DNA from: an uncultured Chloroflexia bacterium
GTDB lineage: Bacteria > Chloroflexota > Anaerolineae > JAAEKA01
Assembly: GCA_963707275.1 (NCBI GenBank)
Contig: CAVPPH010000010.1
Coordinates: 111,106 to 175,105, forward strand
Reading direction: 5' to 3'
Length of the DNA stretch: 64,000 bases
The notes under the pieces were generated by a model. That model had not been told where the DNA came from. It did not search any database and was given only the letters and a program-made list of their open reading frames with translations. How positions within the stretch are numbered: the stretch's first letter is position 1; the number at the start of each line of letters is the position of its first letter. Shown here one piece after another: positions 34,400-42,083 of this stretch. A program made the position numbers and the translations under genes.

Positions 34400-37087
34400 A
34401 TGGCAGTCAAGGCACAAACCACTCGCAGCATTTCGTTCACTGACCATTTGAAGCAGGCATTGGAACTGATCGACAATTCGGAAGCGCTGGGCGGCCAGTC
34501 GCCGCTGGCCGCGCCCTATTTTCTGGGCGATGCGCTGCGCGGCGTCGATGCGACCCCGGCGGCACGGGGCGCGGCCCTCCGCGCCGCTATCGACCGCTGT
34601 CTCGTGACCATGTGGGGCGGTCCGCTGCCGGACGACGGCCACGCCATGCTGGACGAGGCGCTGAGCGAGGAGGAGCAGGGCGGACGTTACGACTGCCTGA
34701 TCCTGGAGCTCAACTACCTCGGACAGCGCTACCGGCCCGTGCCGCGCAACCAGGCCGCGATCTACCACGACATCCTGCACATCTCACGGCCGACGCATGA
34801 CCGCCACCTGCGCAACGCGATCGGTCGTCTGGGCGCGCTGCTGCTGCAGCAACTGCGGCCCGCGGTGCGTCCGGAGCAGCCCATCGCCCCGCCCGCGCTG
34901 ATCGGCCGCGACCAGCTTCAGCAGCAGGCGCTGGACGACCTGGAAGCGCGGCAAGTCGGTCAGCCTCACCGGCCCGGGCGGGGTCGGCAAGACCTCTCTG
35001 GCCGCGACGCTGGCGGACGACTGGATTTCGCCGGCCGTCTTCTGGTACACCTTCCGCCCGACCTTCAACGACCAGTTGGAGAGCCTGCTTTTCGCCCTCG
35101 GCTATTTTCTGCACGGCCAGGGCGCGTCGGCGCTCTGGCATCAACTGGTGGCCGATGGCGGGCGCATCAAGGACAGCGGGCTGGCGCTGGGGTTGGCGCT
35201 GGCAGATCTGGCCAGCCTGCGGCATCGCCCGCTGCTCTGCTTCGACGAACTTGATTTCCTGCGCCCGCTGACCCAGGACCAGGCCAAACCAAACCATGTC
35301 CAGATCCTCGAATTCCTGGACAGCCTGCGCGGCCACACAGCCCTGCTGCTGATCGGCCAGCGCAGCTACTGGGAAAGCGACGCCATCTACCGGCTGGACG
35401 GGCTGACCGCCGAGCAGTTCGACGCCTGGCTGACATCGCTGTCGATCTCTCATTCACCCGCCGACGCAGCGCAGCTTCACGCCTACACGGCCGGCAATCC
35501 GCGTCTGGCGGAGCTTTGCATCGCCCTCTTCAGGCGGCCGGCGGCGAGTCGCTGGCCGCCGTGCTGGATCAGCTGCCGCGCTTCCAGGCGCTGCTTCCCC
35601 TCTGGCTGCGCCTGGAACGCCGGCTACCGCTGGCGGAACGGCAGGTATTGCAGGCGTTATCCGTCTTTCGCTCGCCCGCGCCCGCCGATGCGTGGCTGGG
35701 CGACGAGGAAGCGGCCGACGCGCTGGCGCAGTTGATCAGCCGGCGGCTGGTGCAGAGCGACGAGCAGGGCGGCGTCACGCTGCTGCCGGCGCTGGGCGAG
35801 GTCGTCTACGCCGAGCTGCCGGTGGAAACTCAGGAAGAGCTGCACGGGCAGGCCGCCCAGATCCGCGCCGAACGCGGTGAGTACACCGCGGCCGCGTACC
35901 ACCTCTACGCTGCCGGCCAGCCGGACGCAGCCGTCGAGCTGTGGTATCCGCAGCGCGCCCAGGAGATCAACCGCGGCCAGGCCGGCGCGGCGCTGGCGAT
36001 CTTCTCGCAGATTTCCCAGCGCCGCCTGACCACGCGATCGCCGCAAGGAACTGCTATCTGCTGCGCAGCGAGCTGCACGAACTGATCGGCGAACCGGCGC
36101 GCGTCATCGACGAGCTGTCGTCCACGGAACTGGACCCGTCGATGACCCGGCCACGCCGGAAGCCATGCTGCGCCTCGGCCACGCGCAGGAAGCCCAGGGA
36201 CAGGCCCGATGCGGCGCTGGACACCTATCAGGCCGGGCTGGAGACGGTCACCCATTTGTTGCGCCAGGGCGCGCAGCTGCACGTCCAGCGCAGCCTGACG
36301 CATCTGCGCCAGCGGGAGATGCAGCAGGCGTGGAAGGAGGCAAACCTGGCCCGCTTCCACGCTGAGACCATGCTGGGCGTGGTGCACGATCAGCGCGGCG
36401 ACTACGAGACCGCCCGCGCTCACTACGTCAGCGCGCTGGCGACGGCGGAGGAGGCGGACTACGAGGCGGGCATGGCGCAGAGCCATCACTATCTGGCGAT
36501 GCTGGCCGGACGTCACGGCAACATGGACGAGGCGCTGCCGCATTTCGAGCAGGCCATCGACTTCTACGAGCACATCGGCGACCGCGTCAACCGCGAGTAC
36601 GTGCGCAGCAACCTGGCCAGCGCCTACATCCAGACCGGCCAGTTCGCCGAGGCGCTGGCGCCGGCCGAGCAGGCGATGCGTTTCTTCGAGGCCATGGGCA
36701 ACCCCTTCCGCACCGCCCAGAACGCTTCGAACCTGGCGGAAGCGCACGCCGAGCTGGGCAACCTGGAGCCGGCGCAGCAGTACGCCGAGCTGGTGCTGGC
36801 ACAGGAGGAGCCGCACAGCCATCCCTACGCGCTCTACACGCTGGGCACAGTCTACAAGCAGCGCGGCGACTGGGAGCGTTCCTGGCTCTCCTACGATCAC
36901 TGCCGCAAGATGGCAGAGGCCAACGACGACACCTATCTGCTGGCATTTGCCTGGCGCGCGCTGGGTGAAGTACACGACAGCCAGACAAGAGCAGGCCAGC
37001 GCTGACGCCGCCTTTGCGCAGGCGTTGGAACTGTTCCAGCGCCTCAACATCGCCGAAGAAGTGCGCCGTACTGAGGAATTGATGTAA
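34400..37087 (+). CDS. HTH-STAND (NB-ARC-like) ATPase-TPR protein, putative transcriptional activator (frameshifted)
   Basis: N-terminal HTH-like QAAIYHDILHISRPTHDRHLRNAI; Walker A LTGPGGVGKTSLA; Walker B LLCFDELD; TAGNPRL; C-terminal TPR helices. Confidence 0.8.
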
Positions 37088-37091
37088 GAGC

Positions 37092-37147
37092 GTGATGCAA
37101 AACACCTACAACGTGATGCATTCCGCAGCCCTTTTGCGTTTTATACT
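37092..37147 (+). promoter_or_regulatory. Double-box promoter 1
   Basis: GTGATGCA (37092), GTGATGCA (37113), 21 bp, TATACT (37142). Confidence 0.75.
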
Positions 37148-37205
37148 GTGTGTGTCGAAACAACACCTGACGATCACTAAGCAAGGACAACAAGGAGCAA
37201 CTGAA

Positions 37206-37964
37206 ATGAAACTGGTTTGGAGAATTCTACTGGCGATCACCCTGGTTCTGGGCATGACCTCTTCCCTGGCAACGGCAACCCCTGCCGCCGCGGATGCAGA
37301 GTACGGCTATCTGTGGTCGCTGGACTTCGACTTTGAACATGACTTCAACGGCGTGCTGACCATCCGGGTCGGCCCGTGGGAGAACGGCAATCTGGTGTCG
37401 GTGGACGAGACCTCGACCGCGATCGTTGGCTGCCGGCCCATTGGGCCTGTGGCGCTGAACGCTGGCGACGCCGTCTTCGATGGCGGGCACCTGGAGTGTT
37501 ACCTGGACCTGGCGTCGGTGGTGCTCAACAACCACAAGCTGACCGTTGAGCCGGTGGACAACTACGGCAGCATCCTGCTGCGTACACGGGTCAAGAGCAC
37601 AGCCAACACGGTCGCTCCCATGTTCACGCACCCGGACGCGTCCTACAAGATCGACTTCACCAGCACGTTCGCAGTCACGCCGCAACAGGAGTTGTGGAAC
37701 AACGCCGGCCTGCTGCAGGCAACCTTCCCCGGCGTGACCATCAACACCTGGCAGCCGTACACCTACCAGTACACCTGCATCTGGGGCGGCCCGTGCGACG
37801 CGACCTTCCGGGTCGGCCCGCAGCTGCAGAACATGCCCACCGCGGGCGGGCGGGTGCGCTTCTCCACCGGGCCGACGGTCTTCGAGATCGGCCGCGACGG
37901 CGGCGACCTCTTCTACGGACGAATGTCCTCACTGCGCATCGATCCGGGGAACTCCGCCCACTGA
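37206..37964 (+). CDS. Secreted protein, possibly LamG/concanavalin-like beta-sandwich
   Basis: Signal peptide MKLVWRILLAITLVLG..A; AAGGAG RBS; AVFDGG and C-terminal FEIG...FYGRMSSLRID pattern. Confidence 0.7.
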   Translation: MKLVWRILLAITLVLGMTSSLATATPAAADAEYGYLWSLDFDFEHDFNGVLTIRVGPWENGNLVSVDETSTAIVGCRPIGPVALNAGDAVFDGGHLECYLDLASVVLNNHKLTVEPVDNYGSILLRTRVKSTANTVAPMFTHPDASYKIDFTSTFAVTPQQELWNNAGLLQATFPGVTINTWQPYTYQYTCIWGGPCDATFRVGPQLQNMPTAGGRVRFSTGPTVFEIGRDGGDLFYGRMSSLRIDPGNSAH

Positions 37965-37987
37965 TCACAACAAGCTAACCAGCTTTC

Positions 37988-38024
37988 AAAAGTCCGACTT
38001 CTTCCGTGAAGTCGGACTTTTTTT
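37988..38024 (+). terminator. Intrinsic terminator
   Basis: AAAAGTCCGACTTC-N6-GAAGTCGGACTTTT plus T tract. Confidence 0.85.
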
Positions 38025-38110
38025 GTGCTCTCGAGCGTTCGTAGCAGGCGACTCCAGCGCCGTGTCGAGCCCAACACGACGCTGAAGCGCCTGATACGAA
38101 CGGGCCAAGC

Positions 38111-38166
38111 ATGATGCATAGGCCCCGATCTGTGAGACATCCGCGACCCCGATCCGGTAGTATCCT
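38111..38166 (+). promoter_or_regulatory. Double-box promoter 2
   Basis: ATGATGCA (38111), GTGAGACA (38132), 21 bp, TATCCT (38161). Confidence 0.7.
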
Positions 38167-38224
38167 ATGGTTACACAGATGAATGTGGCAGCACATAACC
38201 GTACCAACCCAAGGAGAACCAACG

Positions 38225-38671
38225 ATGAACCAGCAGCAGATCGAGATTGTACAGCGCACCTTTGATATGGCCGCACCGATGGCCGACGAGTTGGCCGACC
38301 GCTTCTACACACGGCTTTTCGAGCTGGATCCGGCGTTGCGTCCCATGTTTCATGGCGACATGAAGCAGCAAGGTCAGAAGCTGATGACCGTGCTGGCGCT
38401 GGCCGTGCGTGGCCTCAGCAAGCCAGAGACCATTATCCAGGCCGTGCAGCGGCTGGGCCAGCGTCACGCCGGTTACGGCGTCCAGACGCACCACTACGCC
38501 ACCGTGGGCGAGGCGCTGCTCGCGACCCTGGCCGAGCTTTTCGGGCCGGCCTTCAACGATGAGGTCCGGGCAGCCTGGACCGCCGCCTACACGCTGCTGG
38601 CAACCATCATGCAGGAAGCGGCAGCCGAAGGTGATGCAAGAAGCCCCATCCGTGAGGCAATCGCGGCCTGA
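38225..38671 (+). CDS. Single-domain globin (flavohemoglobin-like globin domain)
   Basis: FYTRLFELDPALRPMF, QGQKL, LGQRHAGYGV proximal His, HYATVGEALLATL, AWTAAY. Confidence 0.92.
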   Translation: MNQQQIEIVQRTFDMAAPMADELADRFYTRLFELDPALRPMFHGDMKQQGQKLMTVLALAVRGLSKPETIIQAVQRLGQRHAGYGVQTHHYATVGEALLATLAELFGPAFNDEVRAAWTAAYTLLATIMQEAAAEGDARSPIREAIAA

Positions 38672-38686
38672 GAGCCGTGTCATAAT
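38631..38686 (+). promoter_or_regulatory. Double-box promoter 3, overlapping the globin 3' end
   Basis: GTGATGCA (38631), GTGAGGCA (38652), 21 bp, TGn-CATAAT (38681). Confidence 0.75.
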
Positions 38687-38738
38687 AACCATGTCACAGC
38701 AGTGACTACCAACCAACCGTTTCACAAGGAGCCCAACC

Positions 38739-40185
38739 ATGTTTCAACAAACAGCACACACACCCGAGACCGGTCACGCAATCGTCATCGGCGGCAGTAT
38801 CGCCGGCATGTTGACCGCCCGGATACTGACCAATCACTTCGCCCAGGTCACGGTCATCGAGCGCGATGAACTACCCGACGGCCCGGCCTTCCGCAAGGGC
38901 GCCCCGCATGCCCGCCACGCCCACGGCCTGCTGGTGCGCGGCCAGCAGATCATGGAAGACCTCTTCCCCGGCCTGACCGAAGACCTGTGGGCGCAGGGCG
39001 CGATCCCCACCAACATGGGCCGCGACCTGACCCTCTACATCGGCGGCGCCAGGGTCAAGCCCTTCGAGGCCGATCTGGTGATCACCGGCAGCAGCCGGCC
39101 GTTGCTGGAGAACGCGATCTACAGCCGTCTGCGCCAGATGCCGCAGGTCCGCTTCCTGACGGGACGCGACGTGACCGGGCTGTGCACCGACGAGGCCAAC
39201 CGGCACGTCACCGGCATCCGCCTGCAAGAGCGGAGCAAGCACGGCCAGGCCGAGCAGGAACTGGCAGCCGATCTGGTAGTGGACGCCAGCGGACGCGGCT
39301 CGAAGCTGCCGACATGGCTGGAAGCGCTGGGCTATCAGCCGCCGGCTGAGACTACCGTCGACTCGCAGACCAGCTACACCACCCGCGATCTATCGTCGCC
39401 CGCACAACGCGCTTCCCTGGAAGGTGCTTGTACAACATGCCCATGGCGCCTGACCACAGCCGCGGCTGCATTCTGATCCCGATTGAAGGGGACCGCATGC
39501 TGGTGACCCTGATCGGCCTCAACGGCGACCAGGCACCGACCGATGAAGCAGGTTTCCTGGCCTATGCCCGCAGCCTGCCGGTCCCCGGCTTCCACGACGC
39601 GATTGCCGCCGCCGAGCCGCTGACCGAACCTTACGGCTACCGGCGGGCAGCCAATCGGCTGCGCCACTACGAGAAGCTGCCGCGCTACCTGGAGGGCGTG
39701 CTGGCGTTGGGCGACTCGGTCTACGCCCTGAACCCGGTCTACGGCCAGGGGATGACCGTCGCAGCGCTGGGCGCGCTGACGCTGGACGAATGCCTGCGCA
39801 CCCAGCAGCGCCGACGGCATGGCCGGTCTTGCCAGCCGCTTCCAGAAGCAACTGGCCAAGGTCAACGCCGGCCCGTGGCAGTTGGCTACCGGCCAGGATT
39901 TGCAGTGGCCCTGCGCCGCGGCCGGTCACAAGACCGATCCGGTCACCCGGCTGGTGCAGCGTTACTTCGACCGGGTGCTGGCGGCCATGGTCGACAACGG
40001 CGAGGTTGCGCAGGCGTTTGCCCAGGTGCAGAACATGCTACAGCCGCCCACGATCCTCTTTCACCCGCGCATTGTCTGGCAGGTGCTGCGCGCCAGATCC
40101 AGCGCCAGACAGCGCAGGCTCGGCGCAGAAACTCAGCGGTCAAGGTGATGCACGACGCCCCATCCGTGAGGCATCGGCGGCGTAG
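38739..40185 (+). CDS. FAD-dependent monooxygenase/epoxidase-like oxidoreductase (frameshifted; end 40148 or 40185)
   Basis: IGGSIAG, VIERD, RHAHGLL, VVDASGRGS, LGDSVYALNPVYGQGMT motifs. Confidence 0.85.
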
Positions 40186-40201
40186 GAACCGTGTCGATAA
40201 T
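40145..40201 (+). promoter_or_regulatory. Double-box promoter 4, overlapping the monooxygenase 3' end
   Basis: GTGATGCA (40145), GTGAGGCA (40166), 22 bp, GATAAT (40196). Confidence 0.72.
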
Positions 40202-40256
40202 AAAGCGTGTCACAGCAGTGACGACAAACCAACCGTTTCAAAAGGAGAAACAAACC

Positions 40257-40748
40257 ATGAAGTTCGCAACGTTCGCAAAGATCGCAGCAGTCGCAGGAGT
40301 TATGATCGCCAGCATGTTCGGCCAGTCGCTTTCTGCTCAGGCCACCGAGCAGATCACCATGGGCTACACCAAGGCCGAATGGCAGACGGTCGATCCTCGC
40401 ACCCGCTTCGCCGCCGACCTGACGGTGATGGATGATGGCAGCGCCGCCGGCACCATCCAGATCCACAAGGCCAGCGATGTCACGCTGAAGCGCGGCGTCA
40501 TCAACGCCGCCAGCGGCCGGGTCATCTGCGACCGCGACGAGCCGGTGATGATCGTCGAAGGCACCTACTACGAGGAGATTGGCGGCACGCTGGTGGCCCG
40601 TGGACCGGCCAGCGCCGAGGTTCGCAAGGGCGGCAAGGCGGCGGCGGAGACATCGTCGTCTTCGACATCGATCGGTGTCACTTCCCAAAACAGCACGATT
40701 CGAAGCCCGTCGGGCGAGTTGACATTCCCGGTCAATCCCTGCCGATAG
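40257..40748 (+). CDS. Secreted hypothetical protein
   Basis: AAGGAG RBS, signal peptide MKFATFAKIAAVAGVMIASMFGQSLSAQA, beta-rich mature part. Confidence 0.7.
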   Translation: MKFATFAKIAAVAGVMIASMFGQSLSAQATEQITMGYTKAEWQTVDPRTRFAADLTVMDDGSAAGTIQIHKASDVTLKRGVINAASGRVICDRDEPVMIVEGTYYEEIGGTLVARGPASAEVRKGGKAAAETSSSSTSIGVTSQNSTIRSPSGELTFPVNPCR

Positions 40749-40768
40749 ACAAGCAACGCAAAACAAAG

Positions 40769-40801
40769 AAAAGCCGGTGCAGATGAACTGCGCCGGCTTT
40801 T
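40769..40801. terminator. Bidirectional intrinsic terminator
   Basis: AAAAGCCGGTGCAG-ATGAA-CTGCGCCGGCTTTT between convergent genes. Confidence 0.85.
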
Positions 40802-40834
40802 GTGATTCTCAGTTTGCGCGAGGTCACGCTCGTC

Positions 40835-41968
40835 CTATCCCAGCGAAATCCCCAGTTCGCGAGCCGTCTGTACAATGTCGCTGTCCAGCGGGACGGTGCG
40901 TGGCGTTCTGGCAACCCGCGAAAGCGGCAGGTCGGTCAGATACTCGCCGCGCAGCGCCACCATTCGCCCGGTCTTGCCGTCGGCGATGAGCCGCACCGCA
41001 GCCGCGCCGAAACGGGTTGCCAGCACCCGATCCGCGCCGCTGGGGGTGCCGCCGCGCTGGACGTGGCCCAGCACGGTCACCCGAATCTCGTAGCCAGCTT
41101 CTTCCGGTAGACTCTCCTGCTCGGCCAGCAGCCGCTCAGCCAGATAAAAGCCGATGCCGCCCAGCCGCGGCGCCTCCTGGCCCGCGATGCCCGCCCAGTA
41201 GATCTCCTGGCCATCCTTGGGCCGCGCGCCTTCGGCGACCACGATGATCGCCGAGCGCTGAACGTCCTGAAGCAGCGCTCCAGGCGCTCGCGGACCACGG
41301 CGACATCGAAGGGCTGTTCCGGGATCAGCACCACGTCCGCGCCGCCGCCAACGCCGGCATGCAGCGCGATCCAGCCCGCCTTGCGCCCCATGACCTCGAC
41401 GATCATCGCGCGGTGATGGCTCTCGGCGGTGGTGCGCAGGCGGTCGATGGCCTCGGTGGCGATGTTGACGGCGGTGTCGAAGCCGAAGCTGTACTCGGTG
41501 CCGTCCACGTCGTTGTCGATGGTTTTTGGGACGCCCACCAGCGGCGCGCCCATGTCGTGCAGCTCGCGCGCGATGCGCATGGTGCCGTCGCCGCCGATGA
41601 CCACGATCGCGTCCAGCCCCAGCTCCGCGATGCGCTCCATCACCCGCGGCGTCACGTCGATGACGATCTGGTCGCCCTTCAGTCGTTTGGTGTAGAGAAA
41701 GGGGTTGGTTCGGCTGGCAGCGCCGAGAATGGTGCCGCCACGCGCCAGATATGCCGTGCACCGAGTTGAGGGTCAGCGGAATGGCGGCGTTGGGGTCGTC
41801 GGTGACCAGTCCCTCGAACCCATCCTTGATGCCGACGACTTCCCAGCCGTGAACCGCGACCGCCGACTTGACGACAGCCCGGATCACTGCGTTCAGGCCG
41901 GGGCAGTCGCCGCCCGCTGTCAGAACGCCGATCCGCTCGATTCGCTTCTGCCGTCTGCGACTGTTCAT
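40835..41968 (-). CDS. pfkA: 6-phosphofructokinase (frameshifted)
   Basis: [41 protein letters not shown]. Confidence 0.93.
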
Positions 41969-41998
41969 GGGGACTCCGTTGTCGTCCCTCTACTTATG

Positions 41999-42083
41999 AT
42001 CTCGCTCTGGCCGGTCTCCTGACCGAGCCAGCGTCGGCGTAACTTTCGGTGCTGGCTCGGTCTGAGACCGGCCAGAGCGAGAT
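41999..42083. repeat. Long near-perfect inverted repeat (REP-like)
   Basis: ATCTCGCTCTGGCCGGTCTCCTGACCGAGCCAGC ... GCTGGCTCGGTCTGAGACCGGCCAGAGCGAGAT. Confidence 0.75.

Follow-up and report, generated by a model that had tools for sequence, protein, structure and literature searches.

We consider it probable that each copy of a duplicated module of about 105 bp is an activator-dependent promoter whose boxes are bound by the neighbouring STAND-TPR protein (a predicted regulator), and that the C-terminal tail shared by two unrelated proteins of this locus arose from two genes reading through these boxes. It would thus provide an example in bacteria, with a history that can be traced, of a regulatory motif in DNA dictating the C-terminus of a protein and putting the same tail on two unrelated proteins, and it cautions against taking such shared tails for degrons. 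The analysis concerns a 64,000-nucleotide stretch of DNA (the window) from a genome of 5.69 Mb, labeled G000. The other members of the genus are G001, G002 (75% complete), and G003.

The two copies, at 38628-38731 and 40142-40247 on the plus strand, match in 90 of the 106 columns of a global alignment (85%), and their 100-nt flanks match in only 53/106 and 57/107 columns, about 50%. Blastn identified two copies in the whole genome, 1.5 kb apart (E 4.9e-26, the next best match being no better than E 0.13), and nhmmer likewise found these two only. The similarity begins 4 nt before the first box and ends at the start codon. Module 1 contains boxes at 38632-38638 and 38653-38659, the globin stop codon (38669-38671), an extended -10 CATAAT (38681-38686), a 5-bp leader hairpin (38693-38706), and AAGGAG (38726-38731). 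Module 2 has the same elements: boxes at 40146-40152 and 40167-40173, the monooxygenase stop codon (40183-40185), a -10 GATAAT (40196-40201), a leader hairpin (40209-40222), and AAGGAG (40242-40247). A preliminary description, made from the sequence, had proposed this duplication at about 85% identity, with boxes, -10, leader, and AAGGAG in both copies. All of this is confirmed, as is the view of the module as promoter-like DNA overlapping a gene tail.

It is extremely improbable that the duplication, or the junction between module 1 and the monooxygenase gene, is an artefact of assembly. This assembly is full of frameshifts, none of the contigs listed spans module 1 into the monooxygenase, and we found no sequencing run of this very strain (the best word share was 0.20, with none reaching half). 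However, the copies differ at 16 of the 106 columns, G003 is collinear with the window at module 2, and four studies yielded contigs in which module 1 follows the globin, the junction being the one part without outside support. Single-base frameshifts are frequent in the regulator, the monooxygenase, a pfk-like gene, and clpX (window 34400-42000 and G000:C1:170382-171596). Their density suggests an unpolished long-read assembly, in which apparent pseudogenes are not to be trusted.

All the genes of the locus are on the plus strand. The first encodes the likely cognate activator (34400-37087), with a sigma-4-like HTH at its N-terminus, a STAND NTPase, and a TPR sensor; it is split here into four frameshifted pieces and is 892 aa long in G003. 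A non-coding box pair with a -10 TATACT (37093-37147, boxes at 37093-37099 and 37114-37120) precedes the gene of a secreted-type protein, Y (37206-37964), which is followed by an intrinsic-terminator-like hairpin (37988-38021). Homologs of Y lie beside the regulator in many loci, where it is the most constant neighbour, and it may be tied to the inducing signal. A second non-coding box pair, with a -10 TATCCT (38112-38166, boxes at 38112-38118 and 38133-38139), precedes a single-domain globin of 148 aa (38225-38671; Pfam Globin, 1.3e-17), whose last 14 codons traverse module 1. Next come a FAD-dependent monooxygenase-like gene (38739-40185; 480 aa in G003) and the gene of X2 (40257-40748), a secreted-type protein of no known family that is 77% identical to X2 of G003 and 43% to its paralog X1. 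The monooxygenase gene carries four single extra bases relative to the contigs of a relative (39388, 39426, 39806, and about 40106), which are probably sequencing errors. Neither Y nor X matched a family in Pfam or NCBIfam, Y had no match in PADLOC, and X had none in the ESM Atlas at 0.9 or above.

Each module reads TGATGCA, 14 nt, TGAGGCA, 21-22 nt, an extended -10, a leader containing a 5-bp hairpin, and AAGGAG. The box pair can be written TGA(T/G)(G/A)CA, with a period of 21 bp from box to box. A consensus -35 is lacking, and a scan for sigma-70 consensus promoters accordingly found none on the plus strand. We interpret this layout as that of a likely activator-dependent promoter. The pattern TGATGCA-N13-KTGAKRCA occurs exactly five times in the genome, each time before a ribosome site and a start codon: in front of Y (37093), the globin (38112), the monooxygenase (38632), X (40146), and a protease-like gene on contig C12. 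Four of the five sites are thus beside the sigma-4-like HTH-STAND-TPR gene. The pattern is found five times in G003, four times in G001, and once in G002, and the other 397 of the 401 genomes of the class have 24 matches, against 17 for the reversed control. The fifth member of the putative regulon (G000:C12:7114-7239; L019:5754-7239, minus strand) is a gene for a 454-aa secreted trypsin-like serine protease, divergent from a uvrA-like gene, and its box pair is kept in G001 and G002. A weaker pair, TGACGCA/TGAGGAA, is found with CACAAT at G000:C2:400406 (plus strand) before a ribosome site and ATG, and is possibly a sixth target.

The regulator has a P-loop (GPGGVGKT) and matches the STAND profiles AAA_16 (9.6e-5), NACHT (4.2e-4), and nSTAND3 (2.2e-3), all under the curated cut-offs; AAA_16 was matched in 15 of 16 family members. 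Its sensor region matches TPR_12 (5.9e-23) and TPR_MalT (2.8e-4). The structural model of the N-terminal part (pLDDT 83) has sigma region 4 as its best match (Z 6.8, rmsd 3.6, 78 aligned residues), and nearly all the top structural matches are to sigma region 4, at middling Z of 5.5-6.8. Foldseek against the PDB gave nothing at E<=0.001 for this model, the best that a sequence profile gave was E 0.096 to the DeoR HTH, and neither the regulator nor 16 N-terminal homologs matched the Trans_reg_C or BTAD families. The N-terminal part was found in 14 of the 401 genomes of the class. In G002, where the motif occurs once and which is incomplete as mentioned above, the regulator was not found with this query. 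Searches of the open literature, outside subscription journals and supplements, turned up no description of this regulator family or of the locus.

A genome collection provided 64 regulator loci, whose titles are almost all those of Chloroflexota or of bacteria without taxon. Excluding the two from the genus itself (L083 and L084) left 62 loci (0.85 Mb), a few of which had already been inspected before the boxes were scanned. The scan for a box pair plus -10 found 43 sites in 27 of these related, and thus not independent, loci; reversed sequences gave 0 and shuffled ones 2, 4, and 5, and 35 of the 62 loci have no consensus site. The last box ends 19-22 nt upstream of the -10 in the scanned sites. 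The period of the box pair was 21 in 39 cases, and the other periods had 0-4 cases each, save for 9 at 26 (periods of 14-29 were counted, and 11 lies outside that range). We could group 55 loci by the recognition helix of their regulator, with seven unassigned. The group with the RPTHDRH helix has a site in all of its 13 loci. When boxes were searched de novo, three groups gave GATGCA (10/13 loci), TGAGAC (10/16), and CAGGAC (6/10), counts that are again not independent, with at most 2 in the controls. The other two groups had no clear box (best 2/10 and 1/6 loci). This change of box with helix, at fixed spacing, is at the level of sequence comparison the best evidence that the regulator may read the boxes. 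Genes downstream of the sites mostly have signal-peptide-like starts, and globins are also found among them. The sister regulators with helix GRGPYF (L111, L115, L116, L117, L119, and L122) have CAGGAC repeats with the same 21-bp period and spacing, and a third box, CGGGA, may be present in L121 and L127. We thus propose a family of HTH-STAND-TPR regulators in Chloroflexota whose promoters keep the same geometry (boxes every 21 bp, the -10 about 21 nt further on) while the boxes vary with the recognition helix. The fixed geometry allows the prediction of regulons in uncultured sludge bacteria, and the pairs of helix and box suggest orthogonal activator-promoter pairs.

The system may work like MalT or AfsR, but with a predicted N-terminal sigma-4-like domain and a 21-bp period. 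MalT is a STAND-TPR activator of Escherichia coli with a C-terminal LuxR HTH. It resembles the present regulator in its STAND and TPR sensor parts and in being a cluster-linked activator with repeated boxes near -35, but here the predicted HTH is N-terminal and the protein ends in TPRs. AfsR of Streptomyces coelicolor is a SARP-NOD-TPR protein with an OmpR-type wHTH and a BTA domain, acting on 11-bp repeats centred at -29.5 (PMC10936776). Both systems combine an N-terminal DNA-binding domain (predicted here), a STAND core, and a TPR sensor, and in both, direct repeats accompany a promoter whose -35 is poor (PMC10936776). The TPR region of the regulator matches the AfsR model at 6.7e-12, a match that is far below the model's cut-off and covers the TPRs only. 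In contrast to AfsR, no SARP or BTAD family was matched, the N-terminal model is closest to sigma region 4, the repeats have a period of 21 bp instead of 11 bp (PMC10936776), and the boxes would lie near -61 to -55 and -40 to -34, judging from the -10. We do not assign the regulator to the SARP class, which has 11-bp-period repeats over the -35/-10 spacer: the boxes here recur every 21 bp, with 19-22 nt between the end of the second one and the -10. An inducer bound by the TPR region might lead the STAND part to oligomerise. Two HTH domains would then occupy the same face of the DNA helix, separated by two turns, and the downstream one, at the -35 position, would recruit RNA polymerase.

The globin ends with EGDARSPIREAIAA followed by TGA at 38671, which places its C-terminus inside the first module copy, as had been claimed. 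The monooxygenase as assembled stops at 40148, and GDARRPIREASAA followed by TAG is found one frame over. The window has one extra base near 40104-40106 relative to G003, and comparison with a relative's contigs likewise shows an extra base near 40106 in three of the four runs (X1, X5, and X6; run X3 has no coverage there). Intact orthologs of the monooxygenase end with QGDAQHRIRETSAA in G003 and QGDTRRAVREASAA in G001, and the globins of these two genomes end with ERDAHLPIREAVAA. The earlier suggestion that the monooxygenase would reach this tail with one indel was right, because of the extra base relative to relatives and the in-frame ends of the intact orthologs. The tail common to two unrelated proteins is real: intact monooxygenases in two genomes of the genus use that very frame.

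The sequence of the boxes explains much of this tail. It contains TGA, and genes can cross the boxes in two frames only, one of which spells D-A, five residues, and E-A. In the same frame, non-coding copies from other genera read YDA*PPIREAS, SDA*PPIYEAS, and HDAYPPICEAS. Since the conceptual translation of non-coding copies gives the same DA..PI.EAS peptide, most residues of the tail are dictated by the DNA motif. Regulator genes of other genera also end inside boxes (CDAKHIKDEA, CDAKHNKDEA, MDDA) or stop at the TGA of the box, and none of them ends with Ala-Ala. The motif does not explain the terminal Ala-Ala, as none of 25 copies outside the genus has Ala-Ala-stop. In five regulator loci, outgroup globins have their stop codon upstream of the boxes, in one case by just 10 nt, and the tail is absent from 111 of 120 globin homologs. 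Hence, the tail is an extension through regulatory DNA at the level of the genus. We take the shared tail for a likely by-product of the predicted binding site, and not for a tag that leads to degradation. C-terminal extension by loss of a stop codon is known in yeast and fly, and in both situations non-coding DNA was co-opted as a protein C-terminus (PMC4494051). The present case differs in that the DNA taken up is probably an activator site that still serves as such, and in that the extension reached two unrelated proteins. The globin P0005, from another assembly, ends with EGDARRPIREASAA, the same 13 residues as the tail of the window's monooxygenase, which suggests exchange between module copies.

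The preliminary description had likened the Ala-Ala ends (IAA and SAA in the window) to SsrA/ClpXP degrons. That the tail was taken over as a ClpXP-like C-terminal degron, such that both induced enzymes are rapidly cleared once the signal ends, is compatible with a promoter role of the module and seems to us rather doubtful. Across the six coding copies in the genomes, variation in the two Ala codons is confined to third positions, and the stop codon alternates between TAG and TGA without moving. Of 15 clusters of tail-bearing proteins, 13 preserve the stop position and 14 have a non-polar last residue, and Ala-Ala ends are found in 6/9 tailed globins vs 14/111 tail-less ones. In addition, clpX is present in G000 (frameshifted) and G001, the tmRNA tag ends with FALAA, and natural Ala-Ala degrons exist (PMC7142297). 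However, Ala-Ala is kept in only 8 of the 15 clusters (6/9 globins and 2/6 monooxygenases), the other seven having SAV, WPSH, SAVAQA, SAI, STA, or, twice, PAL, whereas of 71 orthologs in a proven natural case 67 have it (PMC7142297). The tail is missing altogether from two close monooxygenases (P0124 and P0127). In E. coli, Ala-Ala alone is insufficient, and a polar residue at position 1 and a short polar one at position 3, as in EASAA, are disfavoured (PMC10862746). Moreover, Ala-Ala is the commonest ending in this genome (65/2932 ORFs), 57 of the 111 tail-less globins already end in Ala, and the tail copies share ancestry and are not independent. The resemblance to SsrA-type and natural di-alanine degrons (sigma-AntA) lies in a short Ala-Ala tail past the folded domain, in a host with clpX (PMC7142297, PMC10862746). 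Here there is no Leu or aromatic context, Ala-Ala is kept in about half of the homologs, and the upstream residues are fixed by the DNA motif. We find some selection towards short, non-polar endings plausible; a dedicated degron may exist but lacks support. In an unlikely, more far-reaching version, read-through of the site would have given birth to a working degron, the dual-use 105-bp unit would have spread by duplication and conversion, and STAND activators would replace sigma region 4 at the -35. If true, one piece of DNA would induce the next gene and mark the previous, unrelated protein for destruction. Aside from the tail, a Gly-Asp end is found in 17 of 114 tail-less monooxygenase homologs (within P0179-P0238), and is thus a recurring C-terminal motif.

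The promoter reading of the module, with the tail as its by-product, leaves the question of which unit was copied. In G003 the order is globin, module, X1, a non-coding box pair, monooxygenase, module, and X2. The module in the globin tail thus fronts the secreted gene X1, as it does in G001, and the one in the monooxygenase tail fronts X2, a paralog of X1. In G001, X2 and the -10 and leader are gone, and the coding half of the module is kept with one mismatch per box. In a related strain, sampled by four studies, the globin and module 1 (13 differences in 204 nt) lead to the start of X in all 4 runs. Two outgroup loci have the globin, a non-coding box pair, a small X-like secreted gene, and the monooxygenase. 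Since modules front X1 and X2 in relatives and the start of X in the related strain, the copied unit was probably the promoter plus an X gene, one of which this genome has lost.

The preliminary description had instead seen a promoter cassette copied in front of unrelated cargo genes, and had proposed to check by BLASTN whether it fronts variable cargo. This turned out to be mostly wrong, and a free cassette copied alone appears to us quite improbable. The two copies of this genome do front a monooxygenase and a secreted protein, and their similarity stops at the start codon. They are closer to each other (83% identity) than those of G003 (66%), and with P0005, a globin carrying the monooxygenase tail, this indicates that module sequence moves from gene to gene. 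However, every complete copy in G001, G003, and the related strain fronts an X gene, there are two copies per genome searched and no hallmarks of a mobile element, and the three other promoters of the regulon share little with the modules beyond the boxes (59-67% overall). We also rejected a mobile promoter cassette or repeat element, as there are two copies 1.5 kb apart instead of many dispersed ones before varied genes.

We infer the order of events, because none of the contigs listed confirms the junction and the tree of globins shows no clear branching order (0 of 17 branches starred). The ancestral arrangement would have been globin, promoter, X-like gene, and monooxygenase, with the boxes outside the globin gene. 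In this genus the globin would have lost its stop codon and been extended through the boxes. The promoter and X would then have been duplicated behind the monooxygenase, which acquired the same tail, and the module copies would later have been homogenised. Finally, a deletion joining two AAGGAG sites may have removed the first X from this genome. One short contig has a monooxygenase start like that of the window behind a different leader, joined at CAAGGAG.

Three other readings of the locus were rejected. PADLOC gave a generic TPR match only, which does not make a defence system, and Rfam gave six weak matches, all under gathering scores and none on the module, which disfavours a riboswitch or sRNA. 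The leader hairpin is a poor candidate for an operator, as the genome contains 20 instances of GTCAC-N4-GTGAC, most of them in GC-rich sequence that resembles coding DNA. Downstream of X2, a hairpin resembling a terminator (40770-40801) was seen by eye and is absent from the list of the terminator scan. Palindromic repeats of REP-like type, with core CGCTGAAGCGCCTACTACGAAC, form inverted pairs at dozens of sites of the genome, including window positions 38025-38105. Finally, a homologous monooxygenase in G002 (L018:5401-9185) lies directly behind a different STAND protein with a C-terminal HTH-like motif, and this monooxygenase family is thus paired with more than one type of STAND regulator.
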